Under the pieces are notes generated by a model. That model made no database searches. It saw only the letters and a program-made list of their open reading frames with translations, and had not been told where the DNA came from. Positions 3,087 through 62,728 of a DNA stretch of 64,000 nt are shown one piece after another. Within the stretch, counting starts at the first letter, position 1. Every line of letters starts with the position of its first letter. A program made the translations under genes and the position numbers. Source of the DNA: a bacterium (GTDB lineage Bacteria > Patescibacteriota > Microgenomatia > UBA1400 > PJMF01); the NCBI GenBank assembly GCA_027620445.1, contig JAQBYG010000001.1, positions 5,115 through 69,114 on the forward strand, read 5' to 3'.

Positions 3087-3163
3087 GGTCGCATAGCTCA
3101 GTTGGTTAGAGCGCTGCATTCACATTGCAGAGGTCAAAGGTTCGAATCCTTTTGCGACCACCA
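3087..3163 (+). tRNA. tRNA-Val (anticodon CAC), CCA encoded
   Basis: Cloverleaf read by hand: acceptor GGTCGCA/TGCGACC, D-arm GCTC-AGTTGGTTA-GAGC, anticodon stem CTGCA/TGCAG with loop TTCACAT (CAC), T-arm AGGTC/GGTTCGAATCC-like AAAGG-TTCGAAT-CCTTT, discriminator A, then CCA. Confidence 0.9.
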
Positions 3164-6403: not shown

Positions 6404-6817
6404 GGGGATGTATTGCTTTGACGTATGGCGCTCATTAACATCGGCAGGTCATCTTTGATAACAGATGTAAAACAGATCAAAACATAACTGCAAATTTCAT
6501 TCGCAGCACAGTTGCAAAGGTGAATCAAGTTGCTACGCAAGTAGCTTCCTACTTCTCCCCAGCTCCTTCAGCTTACGCTTTCGCGTAATCTGACATTTAG
6601 CATTTCACTCTCATGGGTGGTGAGTGCTAGGTGGGAACCCAGCCCGTGTGACTTGATGAATTGTTCGGTTTATTCATCACCAAGCTAATAACGACCGAGG
6701 TTGTCGCTGTATGGTTTGACCATTTCCCGCAGCGGCAATTAACCAAAGATGTTCTATACCTGTAGATGCTGTTAGTGTTCACGTACGGACGGGGGTTCAT
6801 TGCCCCCCATCTCCACA
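6404..6817 (+). ncRNA. ssrA: tmRNA (SsrA), standard one-piece form
   Basis: 5' GGGGATGTATTGCTTTGACG (compare E. coli GGGGCUGAUUCUGGAUUCGACG) and 3' GGACGGGGGTTCATTGCCCCCCATCTCCA-CA. T-arm GGGGG/TTCATTG/CCCCC. Acceptor stem 5' GGGGATG with 3' CATCTCC includes the G3:U70 wobble (alanine identity), then discriminator A. Internal tag reading frame ends ...SPAPSAYAFA-TAA (stop at 6586..6588). Lies in a 460-nt gap with no credible ORF. Confidence 0.85.
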
Positions 6818-6836
6818 TCTGGGATTTTGTCGAACA

Positions 6837-14738: not shown

Positions 14739-15525
14739 CTATGCAAAAAATCGCAGGTCTTTTTTCGTTTTAGGAGGAAAAAACTTTAATCCCCAACCAT
14801 CGATGACATGCTTTGAATTTTTTGCCAGTTTTTCATAACTCAGCTCATCAAAACGCCAGTAGCTTCCCACAGGCTTGTTGTACTCAAACATATGATATAT
14901 AGGATAACAATATAAGTCTGCAATCTGAATTCCAATTGTAGTATCAGATTGGGAGAAGAGTAATTTTTCGACAATATTGGGACATTTTTTCCATACAGCT
15001 CCATCCTGCCATCTCATTTTGTTATGTAAGCGACTCAGTTCGTTCCCCATAAAATGTTTCTCAACTTGACCTTCCCTAGGATCGATTATGCAAATACCAA
15101 GAGAACTTTTGGATTCTAAATATTTCTGAAATCTCTCAACCAAAAAATACATACGCAATGTCATATGGATTTTGTGATGGATACTGCTCCCAATATGTCT
15201 TTTTGTCGATAACAACACTATACAAAACGACAGGAATTTGTTTCAAAAAGACAGTGACTTCACTTTCCAGCTCATTATATTTATCTCTGGAATGTAGCTT
15301 TAGTGGCGATGATTGAGCTAGGTCGGGGTTTGCGTAGCGCAAGAAATTTGATTTTATTTCAACCTCTGGATCTTGATAATACTTTTGTTTGATCGCTCGC
15401 AGCTGTGTCTCAATTTTCTTATTATCACTCTCATGAATAATGCAACCAGACAATACGAAAAACTGTTTTCCTGCCTGGGATAATGGAATCGTATCCCCTG
15501 ATTCATCGATATACATCAAATGCAT
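14739..15525 (-). pseudogene. DUF3800-family gene interrupted by a +1 frameshift in an A6/T6 homopolymer
   Basis: Track ORFs 15136..15525 (MHLMYIDESGD..., the DUF3800 N-terminus) and 14739..15218 (C-terminal half with the IQIADL motif) overlap in different frames. Removing one T from the TTTTTT run (plus-strand A6 at 15142..15147) joins them as ...DIAYVFLVERFQKYL.... Confidence 0.6.
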
Positions 15526-16188: not shown

Positions 16189-17247
16189 CTAATACTGTGG
16201 CAAAAATATCTTCTGATTTTCTGGGGTGATGACTATTTTTGGGTAGTTTTTCTCGACGATAATGCGGGCCGCTTTACGCACTGCCCCCTCGAGTGTACGC
16301 TTGAGCGTACGAATGCCAGCGTCGTACCCAAGTGGCCTCGTAATGCTTGGCCAAACTGCCTCCGCCATAATAAACTGTTCGGGACGAAGTCCGGCTTTTT
16401 TCAGCAAGTCCGGCAAAATGTACTGCTGGGCAATGACAATTTTTTCGTGGTCGGTGTACGACGGCATGGTAATTTTCTCGAGACGATCCATCACGGCAGT
16501 TGCAATTGCGGTCGTGTTGTTGGCGGTTGCCAAAAAGATGGCATGCGATAAATCAATTGGGTAATCAATAAACGCATCTCGAAACGAGTGATTCTGGGCA
16601 GGATCCAAAAGCTCAACCAGGACGCCCATGATATCCTTGTTTGCTTCCTCTGCCACACGATCAATTTCGTCGAGCAAAATAACCGGATTACGCACACCAG
16701 CCTCGACCAAACCCTTTACAACCCGACCTGGCTCTGATTCCAAATTCAACCTGGTGCTTCCTCGTAGTTCTTTGGCAGAACCCATACCGCCAAACGGGAT
16801 CCGCACAAGCTTGCGACCGAGCGCTTCAGACAATGAGTACGCGAACGTTGTCTTGCCTGTTCCAACCAAACCAACCAGGAGCAAGATCGGCGCCCGAAAC
16901 CCTTCCTCGGCTGCTTGTGTCTGGCGGAGTTGTAGGACCGAAATGTACTCGAGAAAACGATTTTTGACATCCAGCATGCCAAAGTGGTGTTTGTCGAACA
17001 CTTGCTTGGCCGTCTCGATTGAGAGTCGATCTGCAGTCTCTGCCTCCCAAGGAATTCCCAAGGTCCACTCGATGTAGCGAGAGACTTTTTCGTACTTCTC
17101 GTCGTATGAACCAAGCGCTACCGATCGCTCGAGCGCGACAATGTCTTTATTGACCTTGCGACGCAATTCCTCTGGTAAAGTTGCAGCAGCCACCCGCGAG
17201 CGCAGCTCTTCAATTTCTTGTTCGAGGAGTTGTTTGTAGTCTTGCAT
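16189..17247 (-). CDS. Lon-like AAA+ ATPase core without LAN N-domain and without protease domain
   Basis: 352 aa. Aligns with E. coli Lon residues about 245-580: Walker A LVGLVGTGKTTFAYSLSEALGRKLVRIPFGGMGSAKELRG, Walker B ILLDEIDRV, and sensor region LVELLDPAQNHSFRDAFIDYPIDLSHAIFLATANN. Ends exactly at the AAA+/protease boundary. Confidence 0.75.
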   Translation of the reverse strand: MQDYKQLLEQEIEELRSRVAAATLPEELRRKVNKDIVALERSVALGSYDEKYEKVSRYIEWTLGIPWEAETADRLSIETAKQVFDKHHFGMLDVKNRFLEYISVLQLRQTQAAEEGFRAPILLLVGLVGTGKTTFAYSLSEALGRKLVRIPFGGMGSAKELRGSTRLNLESEPGRVVKGLVEAGVRNPVILLDEIDRVAEEANKDIMGVLVELLDPAQNHSFRDAFIDYPIDLSHAIFLATANNTTAIATAVMDRLEKITMPSYTDHEKIVIAQQYILPDLLKKAGLRPEQFIMAEAVWPSITRPLGYDAGIRTLKRTLEGAVRKAARIIVEKNYPKIVITPENQKIFLPQY

Positions 17248-34270: not shown

Positions 34271-34690
34271 ATGAAAATCCTTCTTGATACCAGCGTACTT
34301 ATTTCGCTACAGGTTGATACAGAAGCGACACATGCAAAAGTACAAAAATACCTGGCAGAACAACAAAGACTTGGCAGTAGATTCCTGGTTACAGACTATG
34401 TGCTTGATGAACTATTTACCAGAATCTTGTATGACTTTGGTGCCAAGGCTGCAAAAGTATCCACAAAAGCTATCGCCAAAGAACTAGAAAACGGTTCTCT
34501 CCACTTATTTCCTATTTCTTCTGACCTCTTCAATCGAGCACAAGACATTTTTGTTGAAATGGCTACCAGAAAATTCTCATTTACAGATGCTTCTACCTTG
34601 GCCGTATATCGCCACTATAAAATTGATGAAATCTGTACGCTTGATGGAGGATTTCACAAAGCAGGGGCTGTTATCAGCTATCTTGACTAA
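34271..34690 (+). CDS. vapC: PIN-domain toxin (VapC-like)
   Basis: MKILLDTSVLIS (first Asp), DYVLDE and FTDASTLAV acidic motifs. About 140 aa. Confidence 0.8.
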   Translation: MKILLDTSVLISLQVDTEATHAKVQKYLAEQQRLGSRFLVTDYVLDELFTRILYDFGAKAAKVSTKAIAKELENGSLHLFPISSDLFNRAQDIFVEMATRKFSFTDASTLAVYRHYKIDEICTLDGGFHKAGAVISYLD

Positions 34691-36630
34691 TGTAACTGCT
34701 CTTGAAACTGCTTTCTTTGCTGCAGAAAGCGAAGCTTGTCGTCCAAGACCGATCGCACATACCAATATGCCTCTACCGGATGAAAGAGGCAGTAGCGAAT
34801 TGCTTTGGCACAGTTTGGGGCAAGGTAAACGTCGACATCTTGCGAAAAAGCCCCCGCTGTAATCAGCGCGTTCACATGCATCGGTTTTTGCGCAACAATG
34901 TCAATAAAGATCATTCCATTACTACCGTGCGGAGGCAAGCTGCTTGCGGTAGCTTCGGCCGCTGAGAGCGAGATGTCTGGCGGTTCAGAAAGAAGTATGG
35001 GAAAGCCTTCACTGTCGTTTGGAAACAATACGAGTCGAGCAGGATTTCTGCCTGCAACAGCGTAACGATTATTGATGAAGAGCGTGGTCTGTTCAACAAC
35101 TATCTCACCTAGTTGAATTTCGGGAAATAATTGGCCTTTCTTACTTTTGCGCTCTGAAGCAAGTAACTCGGGTGAGGAAAACGGGGTGTAGGTGTTATTG
35201 CTTACTGCAAATCCCCAAGCTGGAAGCCCTACAGTTGTTTGCCAATCCAAAGTAATTTGAGGTCCCCCTTGCAGTAACTCAAATGAATTTGGAGAAAAGC
35301 GAATAATCGATGTAGTTATTTCCTCAAATGAAAGTGGTGACAAGTCACTTGCTATCTCCCAAAGCTTCGCCTCTGGATACGAGCTCGGTCGATCTTTGAG
35401 AACATCATTGCGCGCTGCCTGCCCCACCTGTGTTGTGCTCCCTCTGGAGCCATCCAGAATGTAGGGCACAATCCACCACCCCATACTCCTTGCCGTATCG
35501 TCCAGGTATGGATCGGGAAATTGCTCGTCGTAGATTCTCAGATCGGTAATTGCCAATGTGCCATCACTCAATCGCAAACGAACTCGATACTTAGGTGTCG
35601 TAATCCACCAAGCTCGTTCTGCTGCATCTGTTTGACTGACACCTTCATAGACCGACATTTTTTGTACAGGCTGCGTCCGCATCCATGAGTAAAAATCGCC
35701 CGCTGTAACAACCCGACCGTGCGAGTTTGCTTGCCAGTTCTCAACTACATCAAGCTGCTGAAAAAACTCCTGTTGGTTCTCGGCCGCGAGCGAGTTTTCT
35801 ATTCCAAGCTGGGCAAAGGTATAGCCATTGCTTGCCGGCTGGTCGTGCGCCTGTAGAAATAAGTGGGAAAAATACTCTGTCGTGGCACCACGCAAGCGAT
35901 AATCATTTGGTTGGGAGGTAAACGCACTCGTCTGGTCACCATAGTTATAGACCGGATCAGTGATCGTTTGACGGAGAATCAAAGTCGAATCCACAGCACT
36001 CTCGCTCGGCATCACTGCCCAGTCCGCGCCGCTCCAATACGGGTAATGTGGCGGACCACCATACAGCGTGTACGAATCTGTACCAAACTGTTCACGCGTA
36101 ATCTCATGAGTGGTAACCCCATACTCATTTCGCAGGTACCTGAGTGAAAAAGGATCAATCATCCAGGCCGTCGTGGTCTTTGGGTACACTCCAAAAACTG
36201 TTTTAAACTGCTCCATGTACGCGTCAATCAATGCCGCTCGCTCCTCTTGTGAGTAGCCAACTAAAAAGACATGCTGTGCCTCAAACCAGTTTTCTGCAGA
36301 ACCGGTGTACTCCACACTCGCTGCCTCAGCTAACGAGGGAGTGACTTCGAGTAACCCCCCGTACTCAAACTCAGGATAATTCTTGATAGCGGCGACAAAA
36401 TCTGGGTTACTCAGAGCGTCGTAGCGAATAGTAAAAGTAGCAGCCAGATTTCTGTTTTGTAACTCTCGCTGTTGCTCACTAAAAGCAGCTACAGTTCCCG
36501 CATCACAACACTCAGTACCGCGTACTTGGTTGATAATGACGGCATAGTGAGGAATATCTTCTACGGCAAATGCCGGCGAATACGTGCTACACAAACCAAA
36601 TAAAAAAACAACAAAAATCAAGATTCGCAT
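34687..36630 (-). CDS. Large secreted hypothetical protein
   Basis: 647 aa with a cleavable signal peptide (MRILIFVVFLFGLCSTYSPAFA). No confidently recognised domain. Possibly carbohydrate-active, but this is only a guess from composition. Confidence 0.45.
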   Translation of the reverse strand: MRILIFVVFLFGLCSTYSPAFAVEDIPHYAVIINQVRGTECCDAGTVAAFSEQQRELQNRNLAATFTIRYDALSNPDFVAAIKNYPEFEYGGLLEVTPSLAEAASVEYTGSAENWFEAQHVFLVGYSQEERAALIDAYMEQFKTVFGVYPKTTTAWMIDPFSLRYLRNEYGVTTHEITREQFGTDSYTLYGGPPHYPYWSGADWAVMPSESAVDSTLILRQTITDPVYNYGDQTSAFTSQPNDYRLRGATTEYFSHLFLQAHDQPASNGYTFAQLGIENSLAAENQQEFFQQLDVVENWQANSHGRVVTAGDFYSWMRTQPVQKMSVYEGVSQTDAAERAWWITTPKYRVRLRLSDGTLAITDLRIYDEQFPDPYLDDTARSMGWWIVPYILDGSRGSTTQVGQAARNDVLKDRPSSYPEAKLWEIASDLSPLSFEEITTSIIRFSPNSFELLQGGPQITLDWQTTVGLPAWGFAVSNNTYTPFSSPELLASERKSKKGQLFPEIQLGEIVVEQTTLFINNRYAVAGRNPARLVLFPNDSEGFPILLSEPPDISLSAAEATASSLPPHGSNGMIFIDIVAQKPMHVNALITAGAFSQDVDVYLAPNCAKAIRYCLFHPVEAYWYVRSVLDDKLRFLQQRKQFQEQLH

Positions 36631-53338: not shown

Positions 53339-54043
53339 CTATTGGTTGGTTAAGCGCAACTGAACAATGGTGCGAACTGCCGACACCCCATCTCGCCATG
53401 TAATTTTCTTGCCTTCAGAAAAATCTCTTCCTATATAACTAATCGGCACCTCAAAAATTTTGTGGCCGCGTTTGAGCAATTTGCACGTAATCTCTGGCTC
53501 AATATCAAATGCGTTGCTCGTTAATTTGAGTTCGCGCAGCAACTTGGTAGGCACAACTTTGTAGCACGTCTCCATGTCCGACAGTGTTGTGTTGTACAAA
53601 ATGTTTACCAAAAAGTTGAGCACCGAGTTTCCTACCCGATGCCAAAAGAGTAAGTTGAGGTGGGGACCCAAGAAACGTGAGCCGTAGACAATGTCGACTC
53701 TGCCTCGCTTGATTGGTTCTAACAACCCTGGGATATCCTCAGGGTCGTACTCGAGATCTGCATCTTGAATCAACACATACTCACCCGTCGCATGTTCGAG
53801 AGCAAAACGCAGCGCGCTTCCTTTGCCACCATTTTCTTTGCGAAATGTCTTGAGTTTTTTGTGTTTGAGCTTTGCAAGAATTTCTGGTGTGCTGTCGGTC
53901 GAGCCGTCATCAACAACAATCACCTCGGATACGTCCGAGACGCTCAAGAGCTTTTGCAGCACTTCCTTGAGCGTCTTTTCTTCGTTATAAATCGGGACAA
54001 GAACAGAGAGTTTGATAGCGCGTTTCATACGCCTATCATACAT
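53339..54043 (-). CDS. GT2 polyprenyl-phosphate glycosyltransferase (CsbB/GtrB-like)
   Basis: LSVLVPIYNEE...VIVVDDGSTDST...LIQDADLEY (DxD). 1-nt overlap with the dnaK stop. Confidence 0.8.
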   Translation of the reverse strand: MYDRRMKRAIKLSVLVPIYNEEKTLKEVLQKLLSVSDVSEVIVVDDGSTDSTPEILAKLKHKKLKTFRKENGGKGSALRFALEHATGEYVLIQDADLEYDPEDIPGLLEPIKRGRVDIVYGSRFLGPHLNLLFWHRVGNSVLNFLVNILYNTTLSDMETCYKVVPTKLLRELKLTSNAFDIEPEITCKLLKRGHKIFEVPISYIGRDFSEGKKITWRDGVSAVRTIVQLRLTNQ

Positions 54044-55974
54044 TACTCTTTGACAACTTCACCCTCTTCGGCGTCTTCACCTTTCTGTTCTTTTTTGTCG
54101 GCTTTTTCACCATCTTTCGCTTCCTCAGCAGCTCCAGGAGCTTTTTCGGCTTGGGCATTTTGCATTGCCTCACCAATTTTTTGCGCCGAAGCAAACGTGG
54201 CCTCTACCGCTTTGTCCAGCTCTTCTTTGGTCGCGTCTTCTTTGGCAGCCAACTCTTTGAGCTGTTTGACGTTGGTTTCGATAGACTCTTTGTCTTTGGC
54301 ATCAAGCTTGTCGCCATACTCTTTGAGCTGTTTCTCTATTTCAAAAGACACACTCGTAGCCTGATTGCGGGCTTCGACCAACTCCTTTTTCTTTTTGTCC
54401 TCTTCGGCGTGCTGTTCTGCATCTGCCTTCATTTTCTCGACCTCTTCCTCTGACAAATTGGTGGAGTTTTGGATTGAAATCTTTTGTTCCTTACTGGTAT
54501 TTTTGTCTTTGGCGGTCACATGCAAAATGCCGTTTGAGTCAATGTCAAAGGTCACCTCAATCTGCGGGGTACCACGCATAGCTGGTGGGATACCATCGAG
54601 AACAAAGCGTCCAAGTGATTTGTTGTCACTCGCCATCTCACGCTCCCCTTGCAGAACATTGATCTCTACCTGCGTCTGATTGTCAGCCGCCGTCGAGAAT
54701 ACCTGAGACTTGCTGGTTGGCACAGTGGTGTTGCGCTCAATCAGTGGTGTTCTAACTCCCCCGAGTGTCTCGAGACCGAGTGTTAATGGCGTAACATCAA
54801 GGAGGACAACATCTGAGACATCGCCGCCAATGACTCCTGCTTGAATAGCAGCGCCAATCGCGACAACCTCATCCGGGTTGACACCCTTGTGTGGCTCTTT
54901 GCCAAAAAACTTTTTGACTGCTTCAACGACTTTTGGCATACGAGTCATACCACCGACTAGAACAACATCGTTGATATCACTTGGCTGTAACTTGGCGTCC
55001 TTGAGTGCTTTCTCGACTGGTTTGAACGAGCGCTGAATGAGATCGTCTACCAACTCCTCAAGCTTCGAGCGAGAGAGAGATAACGTGAGGTGGAGTGGCT
55101 GTCCTTCATCTCCTTGGGTTATGAATGGTTGATTAATCTCGGTTGATTGTGCGCTCGAGAGCTCTATCTTTGCTTTTTCTGCGACGTCTTTGACACGCTG
55201 TAAAGCTTGTGGGTCTTTGGTCAGATCCTTGCCAAATTCTTTTTTAAACTCTGCGACGATCCAGTCAATAATGACGTGATCAAAGTCATCTCCGCCCAAG
55301 AATGTATCTCCATTGGTAGCTTTTACCTCGAATACGCCGTCGCCAATTTCCAGGATGGAAATGTCAAAGGTACCGCCACCCAGATCGTACACAGCAATAG
55401 TGCTCGAGCCTTTTTTATCGAGACCGTAGGCAAGGGCAGCTGCGGTTGGCTCGTTGACGATACGCTCAACAGTCAGGCCGGCAATTTCACCTGCCTGCTT
55501 GGTTGCTTGGCGCTGAGAATCATCAAAGTAAGCAGGAACCGTTATGACCGCTCTGGAAACTGTGCTTCCAAGGTAGCTCTCTGCATCTGCCTTAGCCTTC
55601 GCCAGAATCTTGGCAGAAATTTCTTGCGGGGTGTAGGACTTGTTCTCAATTTTGACAACTGCCATGCCTTCTTTGCCCTCTGTTATAGGGTAAGAAACGT
55701 GCTTAATAGCTTCTTTGACCGCAGCGTCTTTGAGCTTGCGACCCATGAAACGCTTCACAGAATTCACCGTCTTGGTTGGATTCAGAACCATCTGGCGCTT
55801 TGCGATGTCACCAACAGTGACTTCATCGCCTTTGAAAGAAACGATTGATGGAAAGGTATTGCGACCTTCGGCGGTTGGAATAATTTTGGCGGTACCGCCT
55901 TCCATCACTGCCACAGCGGAGTTGGTGGTTCCAAGATCGATTCCAATGATTTTTCCTGTTTTTGTATCTGACAT
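54043..55974 (-). CDS. dnaK: Chaperone DnaK (Hsp70)
   Basis: [21 protein letters not shown], and full Hsp70 architecture. 643 aa. Confidence 0.95.
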
Positions 55975-60799: not shown

Positions 60800-62728
60800 T
60801 TATACCTGAGATGCCTTGGCTTGGCCCATCAGAGCAGCGAATTCGTCGCCATCGAGGGATTCTTTTTCGAGCAGATTGAGCGAAACTGCGTCGAGTTGCT
60901 TGCGATATTTTGTAATTAGTTGCATCGCGCGTTTTTGGCCTGCAGAGATAAATTCCTGAATAGCTGAGTCGACTTTTTCTTGGAGTGCGTCAGAAATTTT
61001 CATTGGCTCGCCAAAGGCACGATTGTAGTTAGTAGTTTCAAATTGTGGACCAAAGTTCATGGCACCAAGATCACTCATACCGTACTCAACCACCATGGCT
61101 CGGGCGATTCTGGTAGCTCGATCAATATCGCTGCTTGCTCCCGCGGTCAGCTCCTGAAACACAAGTTGCTCTGCAGCACGACCACCCAGCAGGACTGCAA
61201 TCTCATCTATCAGCTCTGACTTAGTTGTTTGCAGCTTATCGCGTTCTGGTGGTGTTAGGGTAAAACCAAGTGCGCGTCCGCGCGAAACAATGGAGATACG
61301 ATGCACTGGATCAGCAAAGGTAGAAACGTGAGCCACTACTGCGTGACCAGCTTCGTGGTACGCGGTCATCTTGCGCTCTAGCTCATCTTGCATGCGTCGC
61401 TTACTCGGACCCAACTTTACCTTGAGTGAGGCTTCTTCTATATCGTTCATGTTGATTTCTGTCTTGCCGGCACGTGCTACAGCAATCGCAGCTTCATTAA
61501 GCATGTTCTCGATATCAGCGCCAGAAAAACCAACGGTTCGTTTGGCGACACGATCCCAGTTCACGTCGGTTGCAAACGGCTTGGACTTGGCATGAATCGA
61601 GAGAATGTACTTGCGCTCTTCTAGATCTGGCAAGTTAACAGTCACTCTGCGATCAAATCGACCTGGGCGCACCAGTGCTGGATCGAGCATATCGCCACGA
61701 TTCGTGGCTGCCATCACAATGACATTATCATTCTGGGTGAAACCATCCATCTCGACCAGGATTTGATTCAAGGTCTGCTCTCGCTCATCGTGGCCACCCA
61801 TGTTCCCAGCTCCTCGCATGCGACCAATGGCATCAATTTCATCGATGAAGATGATAGAAGGAGCAATCTTTTTTGCAGTCGCAAAGAGATCTCGGGCTCG
61901 TGAGGCACCTACACCAACCAGCATCTCCATGAATTCACTGCCAGCAATAGAAAGAAACTGCACGCTGGCTTCGCCGGCAACTGCTCGCGCGAGTAAAGTT
62001 TTTCCAGTTCCGGATGGACCAACAAGCAACACACCACGTGGGGTGCGAGCGCCAACTTTTTGATACTTCTTTGGGTTCTTGAGGAAATCAACAATTTCTT
62101 CGAGCTCTTGCTTGGCTTCGTCCATTCCGCCAACATCTTTAAACTTAGTATTTTGCTTACCTTTGACAAATAGTTTTGCCTTGCTGCGACCGATTCCCAT
62201 CATGCCGTCCTGGGCGCCACGCGCTTGACGGAAAATGAAAAAGAAGAACACAAACATAAGTAACACAGGCAAAATATTGAGCGCCATCTCCCAAGCCATT
62301 TCACCAAACGAAAGGTTAGTGACTTCGACATCTGCTTCTGCAAGGTCAATGCCTGCAGCAACTAGGATGCTCAAGACTTCTTGATTGTTTTCTTTGCGGG
62401 CGATCTTATTTGCTCCGTCTTTGTAGGAAATTCTCAGTTCATCGCCGGCAACTTTGACTTCACTCACAGTTTGCTCACGCACGTCTTTGACGAATTTGCT
62501 CAAGCTGATGCTGTTGTCTTCGCTACTCGAGAAAAGTGAGGCAAAAAAGGGCAAAAAAAGCAAGGCCATCAATACATAGAGTATGCCGCGGCTAAAAAAT
62601 TTCGAGAGATTAATCTCCATATGAAACTGCTTGCCAACGATTTTTTTGTCTGCTGGTTTTATTGGATTTGTATCTGATTTTTTCTTTGGGGTAGCCATAT
62701 ATCTCCAGATCGAGCTGTATTGTAACAC
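60800..62728 (-). CDS. ftsH: ATP-dependent zinc metalloprotease FtsH
   Basis: Two N-terminal TM helices, AAA+ module ([17 protein letters not shown]), SRH, and [10 protein letters not shown] zinc site. Confidence 0.95.

Follow-up and report, generated by a model that had tools for sequence, protein, structure and literature searches.

The locus and its gene product

The DNA analysed here is a stretch of 64,000 nucleotides from contig JAQBYG010000001.1 of a Patescibacteriota bacterium, referred to below as the window. Between a gene for a PfkB kinase and one for a family-4-type UDG it carries a complete gene for a protein of 352 residues, which we call Lon-AAA. Lon is the textbook ATP-dependent protease whose motor and proteolytic parts share a single chain. 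The open reading frame (ORF) found in the window is a stand-alone AAA+ module of the LonA type, which begins after the LAN substrate-binding domain and runs up to the linker between the AAA+ and protease parts (Table 1). Its ATG start directly adjoins the PfkB stop codon upstream, and its own stop codon occupies positions 16189-16191. The UDG gene follows after only 24 nt, so there is no room downstream for a missed domain.

A preliminary description of this DNA, made from its letters, held that the protein corresponds to the middle of LonA only, and Pfam, TIGR00763, the matches to solved structures and tblastn all agree. The domain scan that it proposed, by hidden Markov models, returned AAA (residues 122-260) and Lon_lid (residues 283-334) and no match to Lon_C or to LON_substr_bdg (PF02190); the protein lacks the S16 proteolytic domain with its Ser-Lys dyad, and its alignment begins at about Lon 241-250, beyond the LAN domain. 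TIGR00763 (endopeptidase La, NCBIfam) aligns residues 10-334 with model positions 253-568 of 795 (E 2.7e-86). The score of 290.7 bits lies far under the curated equivalog cut-off of 608 because two thirds of the model are missing, and with NF008053 the protein reaches 211 against a cut-off of 891; by score it falls outside LonA. The best matches among solved structures are all LonA and span Lon residues ~245-580 only, and the region of E. coli Lon matched overall is about 241-583. When full-length E. coli Lon (NC_000913.3) was compared with the window by tblastn, the sole match was 16201-17217, equivalent to Lon 250-579 (E 5e-57); across the 64 kb nothing credible was found for residues 1-249 or 585-784 of Lon. 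This search and the 24-nt gap uphold the earlier statement that no protease ORF adjoins the gene and that its neighbours are UDG and PfkB. The Lon-type AAA+ module itself has all its parts (the three-helix bundle NTD3H, the alpha/beta subdomain and the Lon lid), as seen from Pfam, from an AlphaFold2 (AF2) model compared by Foldseek, and from the equivalents of Lon Y294 and W297.

Table 1. Coordinates of Lon-AAA, its parts and other proteostasis features in the window
Feature	Position	Strand	Basis
Lon-AAA gene, complete, 352 aa	16189..17247	(-)	ORF list; Pfam; TIGR00763; identical protein on independent ENA contig
Three-helix bundle (Lon NTD3H), residues 1-64 (helices 2-21, 26-45, 50-64)	17056..17247	(-)	AF2 secondary structure, alignment
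AAA+ large alpha/beta subdomain, residues 70-262	16462..17040	(-)	Pfam AAA; Foldseek TM 0.77-0.87 to LonA chains
Walker A GLVGTGKT, K132 invariant 79/79	16849..16872	(-)	Alignment
Pore loop 1 GSTRLNLESEPG, N168 in place of Lon Y398	16726..16761	(-)	Alignment
Walker B VILLDE, D193 and E194 invariant	16666..16683	(-)	Alignment
Pre-sensor-1 beta-hairpin region PAQNHSFRDAFIDYPIDLS	16546..16602	(-)	Alignment and AF2 model
Sensor-1 N244 (16516-16518) and arginine finger R255 (16483-16485), both 79/79	16483..16518	(-)	Alignment
Lon-type lid (small alpha subdomain), residues 266-335	16243..16452	(-)	Pfam Lon_lid
Sensor-2 R313, invariant	16309-16311	(-)	Alignment
C-terminal tail PKIVITPENQKIFLPQY, residues 336-352 (17 residues)	16192..16242	(-)	Alignment
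tmRNA	6404-6818	(+)	Rfam RF00023, 92.8 bits, full-length model
FtsH	60800-62728	(-)	Pfam scan
DnaK (Hsp70)	54043-55974	(-)	829 bits

Structural model

An alignment of 42 family sequences gave a confident AF2 model of the monomer (pLDDT 90.1, pTM 0.83). In a Foldseek comparison with the PDB the top 50 matches are all LonA chains, with template-modelling (TM) scores of 0.77-0.87. For the engineered AAA+ construct of E. coli Lon (PDB code 6n2i) the TM scores are 0.85/0.89; the natural boundaries of the protein are thus almost the same as those of the isolated module made by design. Together with the alignment to Lon ~241-583, these near-identical limits support the preliminary placement of the start after the LAN domain and of the end at the AAA+/protease boundary. 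The tail stops where the linker to the protease domain lies in Lon (E. coli ~583), and its end, IFLPQY, shows >=90% conservation in Pacebacteria.

The N-terminal portion had been described as a coiled-coil region. More precisely, these 64 residues are the NTD3H bundle and not the long coiled coil; the long helix, like the LAN domain, is missing. NTD3H has been defined as Lon 253-305 (PMC7239648). Within the bundle, Y58 and W61 align with Lon Y294 and W297, and an invariant Y48 stands where Lon has M284. The pre-sensor-1 beta-hairpin is seen in the model as short paired strands at residues ~222-232. In this region of the window protein Lon E447 is replaced by Ala, Y456 by Phe and E458 by Asp; across the family the NTD3H aromatics are retained, the Y456 equivalent is Y or F and the E458 equivalent is D or N.

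Conservation and selection

Relatives were collected in two ways. The best 120 of the protein clusters found at 90% identity hold proteins of 352-368 residues that are 74-95% identical to the window protein, and their named sources are Pacebacteria, Woesebacteria, Microgenomates or Patescibacteria. When GTDB species representatives were scanned, 111 encoding stretches came up, and 80 loci were retrieved with 10 kb flanks. All 80 are metagenome-assembled genomes (MAGs) of the Candidate Phyla Radiation (CPR), each with a single copy of Lon-AAA. With the window included, a full-length ORF of 352-372 residues was recovered in 79 of the 81 sequences; lengths above 352 arise because ORF calling took the first possible start.

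No gene nearby is as well conserved as Lon-AAA. Over these loci its products have a median identity of 73.7% to the window protein, whereas the neighbours lie at 40-68%: 67.8% for the LOG-like protein, 63.6% for FtsK, 58.5% for RNase J, 57.6% for UDG, 47.5% for PfkB and 41.5% for RPE. Against the closest relatives the nonsynonymous difference per site (pN) is 0.04-0.15 and the synonymous difference (pS) 0.73-0.86, with synonymous sites saturated; synonymous changes outnumber nonsynonymous ones per site ~5-20-fold, and the sole finite estimate of dN/dS is ~0.016. At least 111 GTDB species matches and 240 protein clusters of two lineages agree in start, stop and length, and an independent metagenome contig in ENA encodes an identical 352-residue protein. 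Lon-AAA is a real gene under strong purifying selection.

These data bear on whether the ORF is a decaying remnant, be it a truncated lon duplicate, a pseudogene or an artefact of assembly or frameshift. The fragment-like architecture and the TIGR00763 score below the cut-off would suit such an origin, and the preliminary description had named a truncated duplicate, with premature stops in homologues, as what would overturn its view. The homologues are instead uniformly ~352 residues long. Their conserved ends, the purifying selection and the identical protein on an independent contig exclude a pseudogene or artefact, and the invariant catalytic residues, the highest conservation of the neighbourhood and the 24-nt gap to the next gene argue in the same direction, which leaves the probability of a remnant practically nil.

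ATPase site and pore loop

For residue-level comparison 79 family members were aligned with E. coli Lon, with residue roles taken from work on Y. pestis/E. coli Lon (PMC7239648). The residues expected of an HCLR-clade AAA+ ATPase are all in place: the Walker A Lys (K132), the Walker B Asp-Glu (D193 and E194), the sensor-1 Asn (N244), the arginine finger (R255) and the sensor-2 Arg (R313) are invariant in 79/79 Pacebacteria-type members. All six remain invariant in the 42-sequence cross-lineage alignment, in which Dojkabacteria are added. With the Lon_lid match, this bears out the early assignment of Walker A/B, sensor and alpha-subdomain.

Pore loop 1 has been rewritten. The Lon pattern G-H-R-R-T-Y-I-G-x-M-P-G becomes G-x-S-R-L-x-L-[GE]-x-E-P-G in the family, with R166, L167, L169, E172, P173 and G174 invariant or nearly so. 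Y398, the residue that grips the substrate in Lon (PMC7239648), is at a position where the 79 members carry L (32), I (20), Y (7), V (5), N (5), H (5), F (2), R (2) or K (1); 66 of the 79 Pacebacteria therefore place L, I, V, Y or F between the invariant leucines. The window protein, with N168-L169, departs from the LonA-type loop. On the question raised at the outset, whether the pore loops are intact, loop 1 is fixed at six positions within the family but differs from that of Lon, and the Lon tyrosine is an asparagine here. Approximately 80 of 115 Dojkabacteria-type sequences read QS[KR]A[FY]LDAE and retain an aromatic-hydrophobic pair. Among LonA modules followed by further sequence, 129 of 154 carry Y, W or F at the tyrosine position. 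Judged from these alignments, the loop of most members still looks like a polypeptide-gripping element, and its central residue appears far less constrained than in LonA. A clade-wide degeneracy of the loop, suggested by representatives at 50% identity, was rejected as too strong, as most of the 79 and 115 sequences keep the hydrophobic or aromatic pair.

The same loop invites the thought that Lon-AAA is an ATP-dependent switch or regulator that does not thread, a ring or smaller oligomer that would bind and release a specific partner or nucleic acid according to its nucleotide state, without translocating polypeptide. The tyrosine position varies freely within an otherwise frozen loop and is Asn in the window protein, Lon E447 and R395 are replaced, and Lon AAA+ alpha-domains, which are known to bind DNA, are among the sequence matches of the protein (PDB entries 4git and 1x37). 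Nucleic acid, however, would be poorly served by the acidic loop (E/D-x-E-P-G). The invariant flanking leucines and the mostly hydrophobic central residue are what is expected of a loop that grips polypeptide, and the pore-forming NTD3H bundle is retained and highly conserved. We regard a switch as quite improbable.

Distribution and origin

Among 1.84 billion representatives, searched exhaustively, there are further short forms ending at the AAA+ boundary, proteins of 351-669 residues, 38-53% identical, some with low-complexity or unassigned N-terminal extensions and none with Lon_C or LON_substr_bdg. The 120 best clusters matched by a profile of the distant short forms all have AAA and Lon_lid only, and their named sources are Candidatus Dojkabacteria, WS6 or Patescibacteria. 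Lon_C is absent from these 120 best Dojkabacteria-type matches, as is the DGPSAG motif from 115 Dojkabacteria homologues. One intermediate form comes from a Woesebacteria genome.

In a neighbour-joining tree of 341 columns (25 protease-less sequences and 41 LonA modules) all 100 of 100 bootstraps put the protease-less sequences apart from the LonA modules. Pacebacteria and Dojkabacteria forms have a mean identity of 0.42, against 0.36 for Pacebacteria forms and LonA and 0.51 for LonA modules among themselves. This separation and these identities point to a distinct clade, shared by the two related CPR lineages Microgenomates (Pacebacteria/Woesebacteria) and Dojkabacteria (WS6) and probably of single origin. 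The nearest full-length Lons are ordinary enzymes of Firmicutes and Chloroflexi and not CPR ones. Many of the CPR MAG contigs with Lon-AAA bear implausible taxon names ('uncultured Pseudomonadales', 'Vitreimonas sp.', 'Limisphaerales', 'Methylococcaceae'); these contigs share the Pacebacteria synteny, and such names are probably automated mislabels.

The search also brought up 'tandem Lons', in which two or three Lon-type AAA+ modules precede a single Lon_C in one chain (P0121, P0122, P0124 and 33 others). At least two Lon-type modules are present in 36 of the 150 best representatives, and some modules lack Walker B or the arginine finger. P0121 (1113 aa) is from Candidatus Dependentiae. No literature on tandem Lons was found in the full-text searches run. 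Like them, Lon-AAA departs from the plan of one ATPase and one protease; unlike it, they keep Lon_C and mostly have Y, W or F in pore loop 1, and they are 30-36% identical to it. Derivation of Lon-AAA from a detached D1 ring of such proteins was considered and rejected, the tandem Lons being no closer than ordinary LonA and mostly aromatic in their pore loops.

Gene neighbourhood and search for a partner peptidase

In Pacebacteria the gene lies in a block with the order RpiB-like, RPE-like, LOG/SLOG, PfkB, Lon-AAA, UDG, membrane protein, RNase J and FtsK, with spacers of 0-25 nt, collinear in nearly all loci. At 28 loci, about a third, a small secreted Thr/Ser-rich protein with an LPxTG-like anchor is encoded between PfkB and Lon-AAA (for example L022:3793-4335, L037:9368-9964 and L081:885-1406); the anchor occurs as LPSTG, LPVSGG or LPATGAHD, and the window lacks this gene. 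Dojkabacteria-type loci have other neighbours, namely an M23 peptidase with a VirB4/TraG-PrgI cluster in one and PilM with FtsK in another. No neighbour common to the Pacebacteria and Dojkabacteria-type loci was found among 84 loci. Since the contexts differ in this way, they offer no functional lead, and we rejected the inference of a function from the neighbourhood: the Pacebacteria synteny is simple collinearity of core genes, not found in Dojkabacteria. In two Dojkabacteria-type loci, conserved clusters of a VirB4/TraG-like ATPase, a TraC-like protein and PrgI lie a few kb from Lon-AAA (L082:12578-16716 and L083:13411-17317), and T4SS-pilin genes are also near it in L082. These loci suggest a type-IV-secretion-like or conjugation-like apparatus in the CPR genomes concerned.

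The block also bears on a role as an anti-phage defence or mobile-element ATPase. Weak PADLOC/NCBIfam matches to DolB (1e-7), IetA (4e-6) and IteA (6e-3) are the signs in its favour. They are 80 orders of magnitude weaker than the match to Lon and reflect generic AAA similarity; the best PADLOC match, at 29.5 bits, is no significant match to a defence model. A gene within a collinear core-gene block of nearly all Pacebacteria is unlike the content of patchy defence islands, and we consider a defence role extremely improbable.

More weight attaches to a split, two-component protease, in which the ATPase ring would feed a separately encoded peptidase ring, either a stand-alone Lon_C or another self-compartmentalising peptidase. 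Other ATPases of the HCLR clade work in this manner: ClpX and HslU are stand-alone unfoldases that serve the separate peptidases ClpP and HslV, and they provide a precedent. As free-standing ATPases of the same AAA+ clade without a protease of their own, they may also offer a working analogy for Lon-AAA. The homology is limited to the AAA+ core, however, and Lon-AAA has no zinc-binding domain, I domain or IGF loop, and no partner peptidase was found at its loci. A hydrophobic or aromatic pore loop, as in most clade members, is compatible with threading into such a peptidase. The protein ends exactly at the Lon AAA+/protease linker, where the conserved, lineage-specific tail could dock a partner. 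The extreme C-terminal ends are IFLPQY in Pacebacteria and LPDQGPLS or PEGIGTLS in Dojkabacteria, and the part of the tail that reads N-x-x-x-[FY]-[LI]-[PG] is also present in Lon's own linker.

The search for the partner itself, in the window and in loci with 10 kb flanks, gave no candidate. No tblastn signal of a Lon N or P domain was found in 1.38 Mb of the 80 syntenic loci, nor were these domains in the gene lists of L082-L085, and within 10 kb of Lon-AAA in 84 loci there is no gene for Lon_C, a ClpP-like protein or another peptidase ring. No gene of this kind adjoins Lon-AAA in the window, in the 80 Pacebacteria loci or in the three Dojkabacteria-type loci. One tblastn alignment that extended to Lon 674 (in L003) was discarded, as beyond the stop codon it continues with low identity through UDG sequence. 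Comparison of the contexts in both lineages shows no common candidate; the only nearby peptidase is the M23 cell-wall peptidase of one locus. Nor does the protein show an IGF-like loop or a known docking motif: neither an HbYX-like motif nor another known one fits the C-terminal tail, the end of which differs by lineage. On this balance we judge a two-component protease unlikely.

Relation to known Lon proteins and proposed function

With LonA (E. coli Lon; PDB codes 6n2i, 7p6u and 6on2) the protein shares the N-terminal three-helix bundle, an HCLR-type AAA+ core, the pre-sensor-1 hairpin and the Lon-type lid. The two agree in Walker A/B, sensor-1, arginine finger and sensor-2; along its entire length the protein is 32-36% identical to LonA, with TM scores of 0.77-0.89. 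What it lacks are the LAN/N domain, the long coiled-coil helix and the S16 protease domain with its Ser-Lys dyad; in pore loop 1 the LonA pattern R-T-Y-I-G-x-M-P-G has given way to R-L-x-L-[GE]-x-E-P-G, E447 has become Ala and R395 Ser or Thr, and the family forms a separate clade. Sequence comparison makes Lon-AAA a descendant of the LonA AAA+ module that nevertheless fails the tests by which LonA is defined. LonB, LonC and LonBA are likewise Lon relatives with individual Lon features lost or altered (PMC9569914); these keep the protease domain, whereas the Lon-AAA family is without it. According to this recent classification, all Lons contain both ATPase and protease domains (PMC9569914). 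Neither a Lon without protease domain nor a Lon of CPR bacteria turned up as described in full-text literature searches. Databases label the family 'AAA family ATPase', 'ATP-dependent Lon protease' (JGI) or 'Lon protease' (UniRef), and through the latter labels CPR genomes would be wrongly credited with a Lon protease in reconstructions of proteostasis.

We favour, with some reserve, the reading that Lon-AAA is a functional free-standing hexameric ATPase of the Lon type, which would unfold or remodel protein clients without a fused protease. By analogy with Lon, the subunits would assemble into a hexameric ring; ATP would be bound by Walker A/B and sensed by sensor-1 and sensor-2, and its hydrolysis would be aided by an arginine finger acting in trans. 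Nucleotide-driven movements of the subunits would then act on a client in the central channel, gripped by the rewritten and mostly hydrophobic pore loop 1, R-L-x-L in Pacebacteria and [KR]-A-[FY]-L in Dojkabacteria. As no protease is fused, the output would be chaperone-like unfolding or remodelling, not self-contained degradation, and the ring may work with no partner peptidase at all. Proteolytically inactive yeast Lon (PIM1) reportedly still supports the assembly of mitochondrial complexes.

Several points weigh against this reading. The position of the substrate-gripping Y398 is labile, Asn in the window protein and polar in 13 of the 79 members. The bridging Glu of Lon, E447, is Ala in 69 of the 79, and R395, one of Lon's tandem Arg residues, is Ser or Thr in the family. 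With E447, R395 and Y398 all replaced, the subclade of the window protein may translocate by a changed mechanism or no longer translocate at all. Hexamers of canonical Lon form with the help of the protease domain, and that a ring arises in its absence is assumed. The conserved, lineage-specific C-terminal tails (IFLPQY and LPDQGPLS) could be docking elements for a peptidase encoded elsewhere in the genome.

Domain loss is in itself ordinary. What sets this case apart is the clade-wide conservation, a constraint above that of housekeeping neighbours and the relaxed pore-loop tyrosine: throughout a clade of bacteria with reduced genomes this protein consists of the Lon motor only, and it is more tightly constrained than RNase J or FtsK. 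In these CPR bacteria the motor probably serves a purpose of its own. They offer a natural experiment on the role of the Lon ATPase without proteolysis, which bears on the long-debated chaperone-like activity of Lon, on the dependence of the hexameric Lon ring on its protease domain and on the need for the pore-loop tyrosine. It is conceivable, though on balance doubtful, that the Lon motor freed from its protease has become an essential stand-alone machine in Microgenomates and Dojkabacteria, as a new two-component protease or as a protease-free unfoldase, with the gripping tyrosine dispensable. If so, in the first form a partner would dock on the conserved C-terminal tail, and in the second the unfoldase would stand in for chaperones missing from minimal cells.

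Other features of the window

The preliminary description pointed to FtsH and tmRNA in the same stretch as Lon-AAA, and both are there (Table 1). ARAGORN misses the tmRNA and reports only a tRNA-Val at 3087-3163. The window thus holds other core proteostasis genes, FtsH and DnaK; directly downstream of the latter lies an ORF of 234 residues (region 53339-55974, reverse strand). An ORF of 647 residues at 34687-36630 (reverse strand) has no Pfam match at E <= 1e-5.

By ORF clustering, the other Pacebacteria loci have nothing at this position that corresponds to a DUF3800 gene at 14739-15525 (reverse strand) or to TruB next to it. Two overlapping ORFs make up the DUF3800 gene, 15136-15525 matching profile positions 2-75 and 14739-15218 matching 62-148. 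The same split (126 and 141 residues) is present on the independent ENA contig L085, which speaks for a genuine frameshift or a pseudogene and against an error of sequencing.

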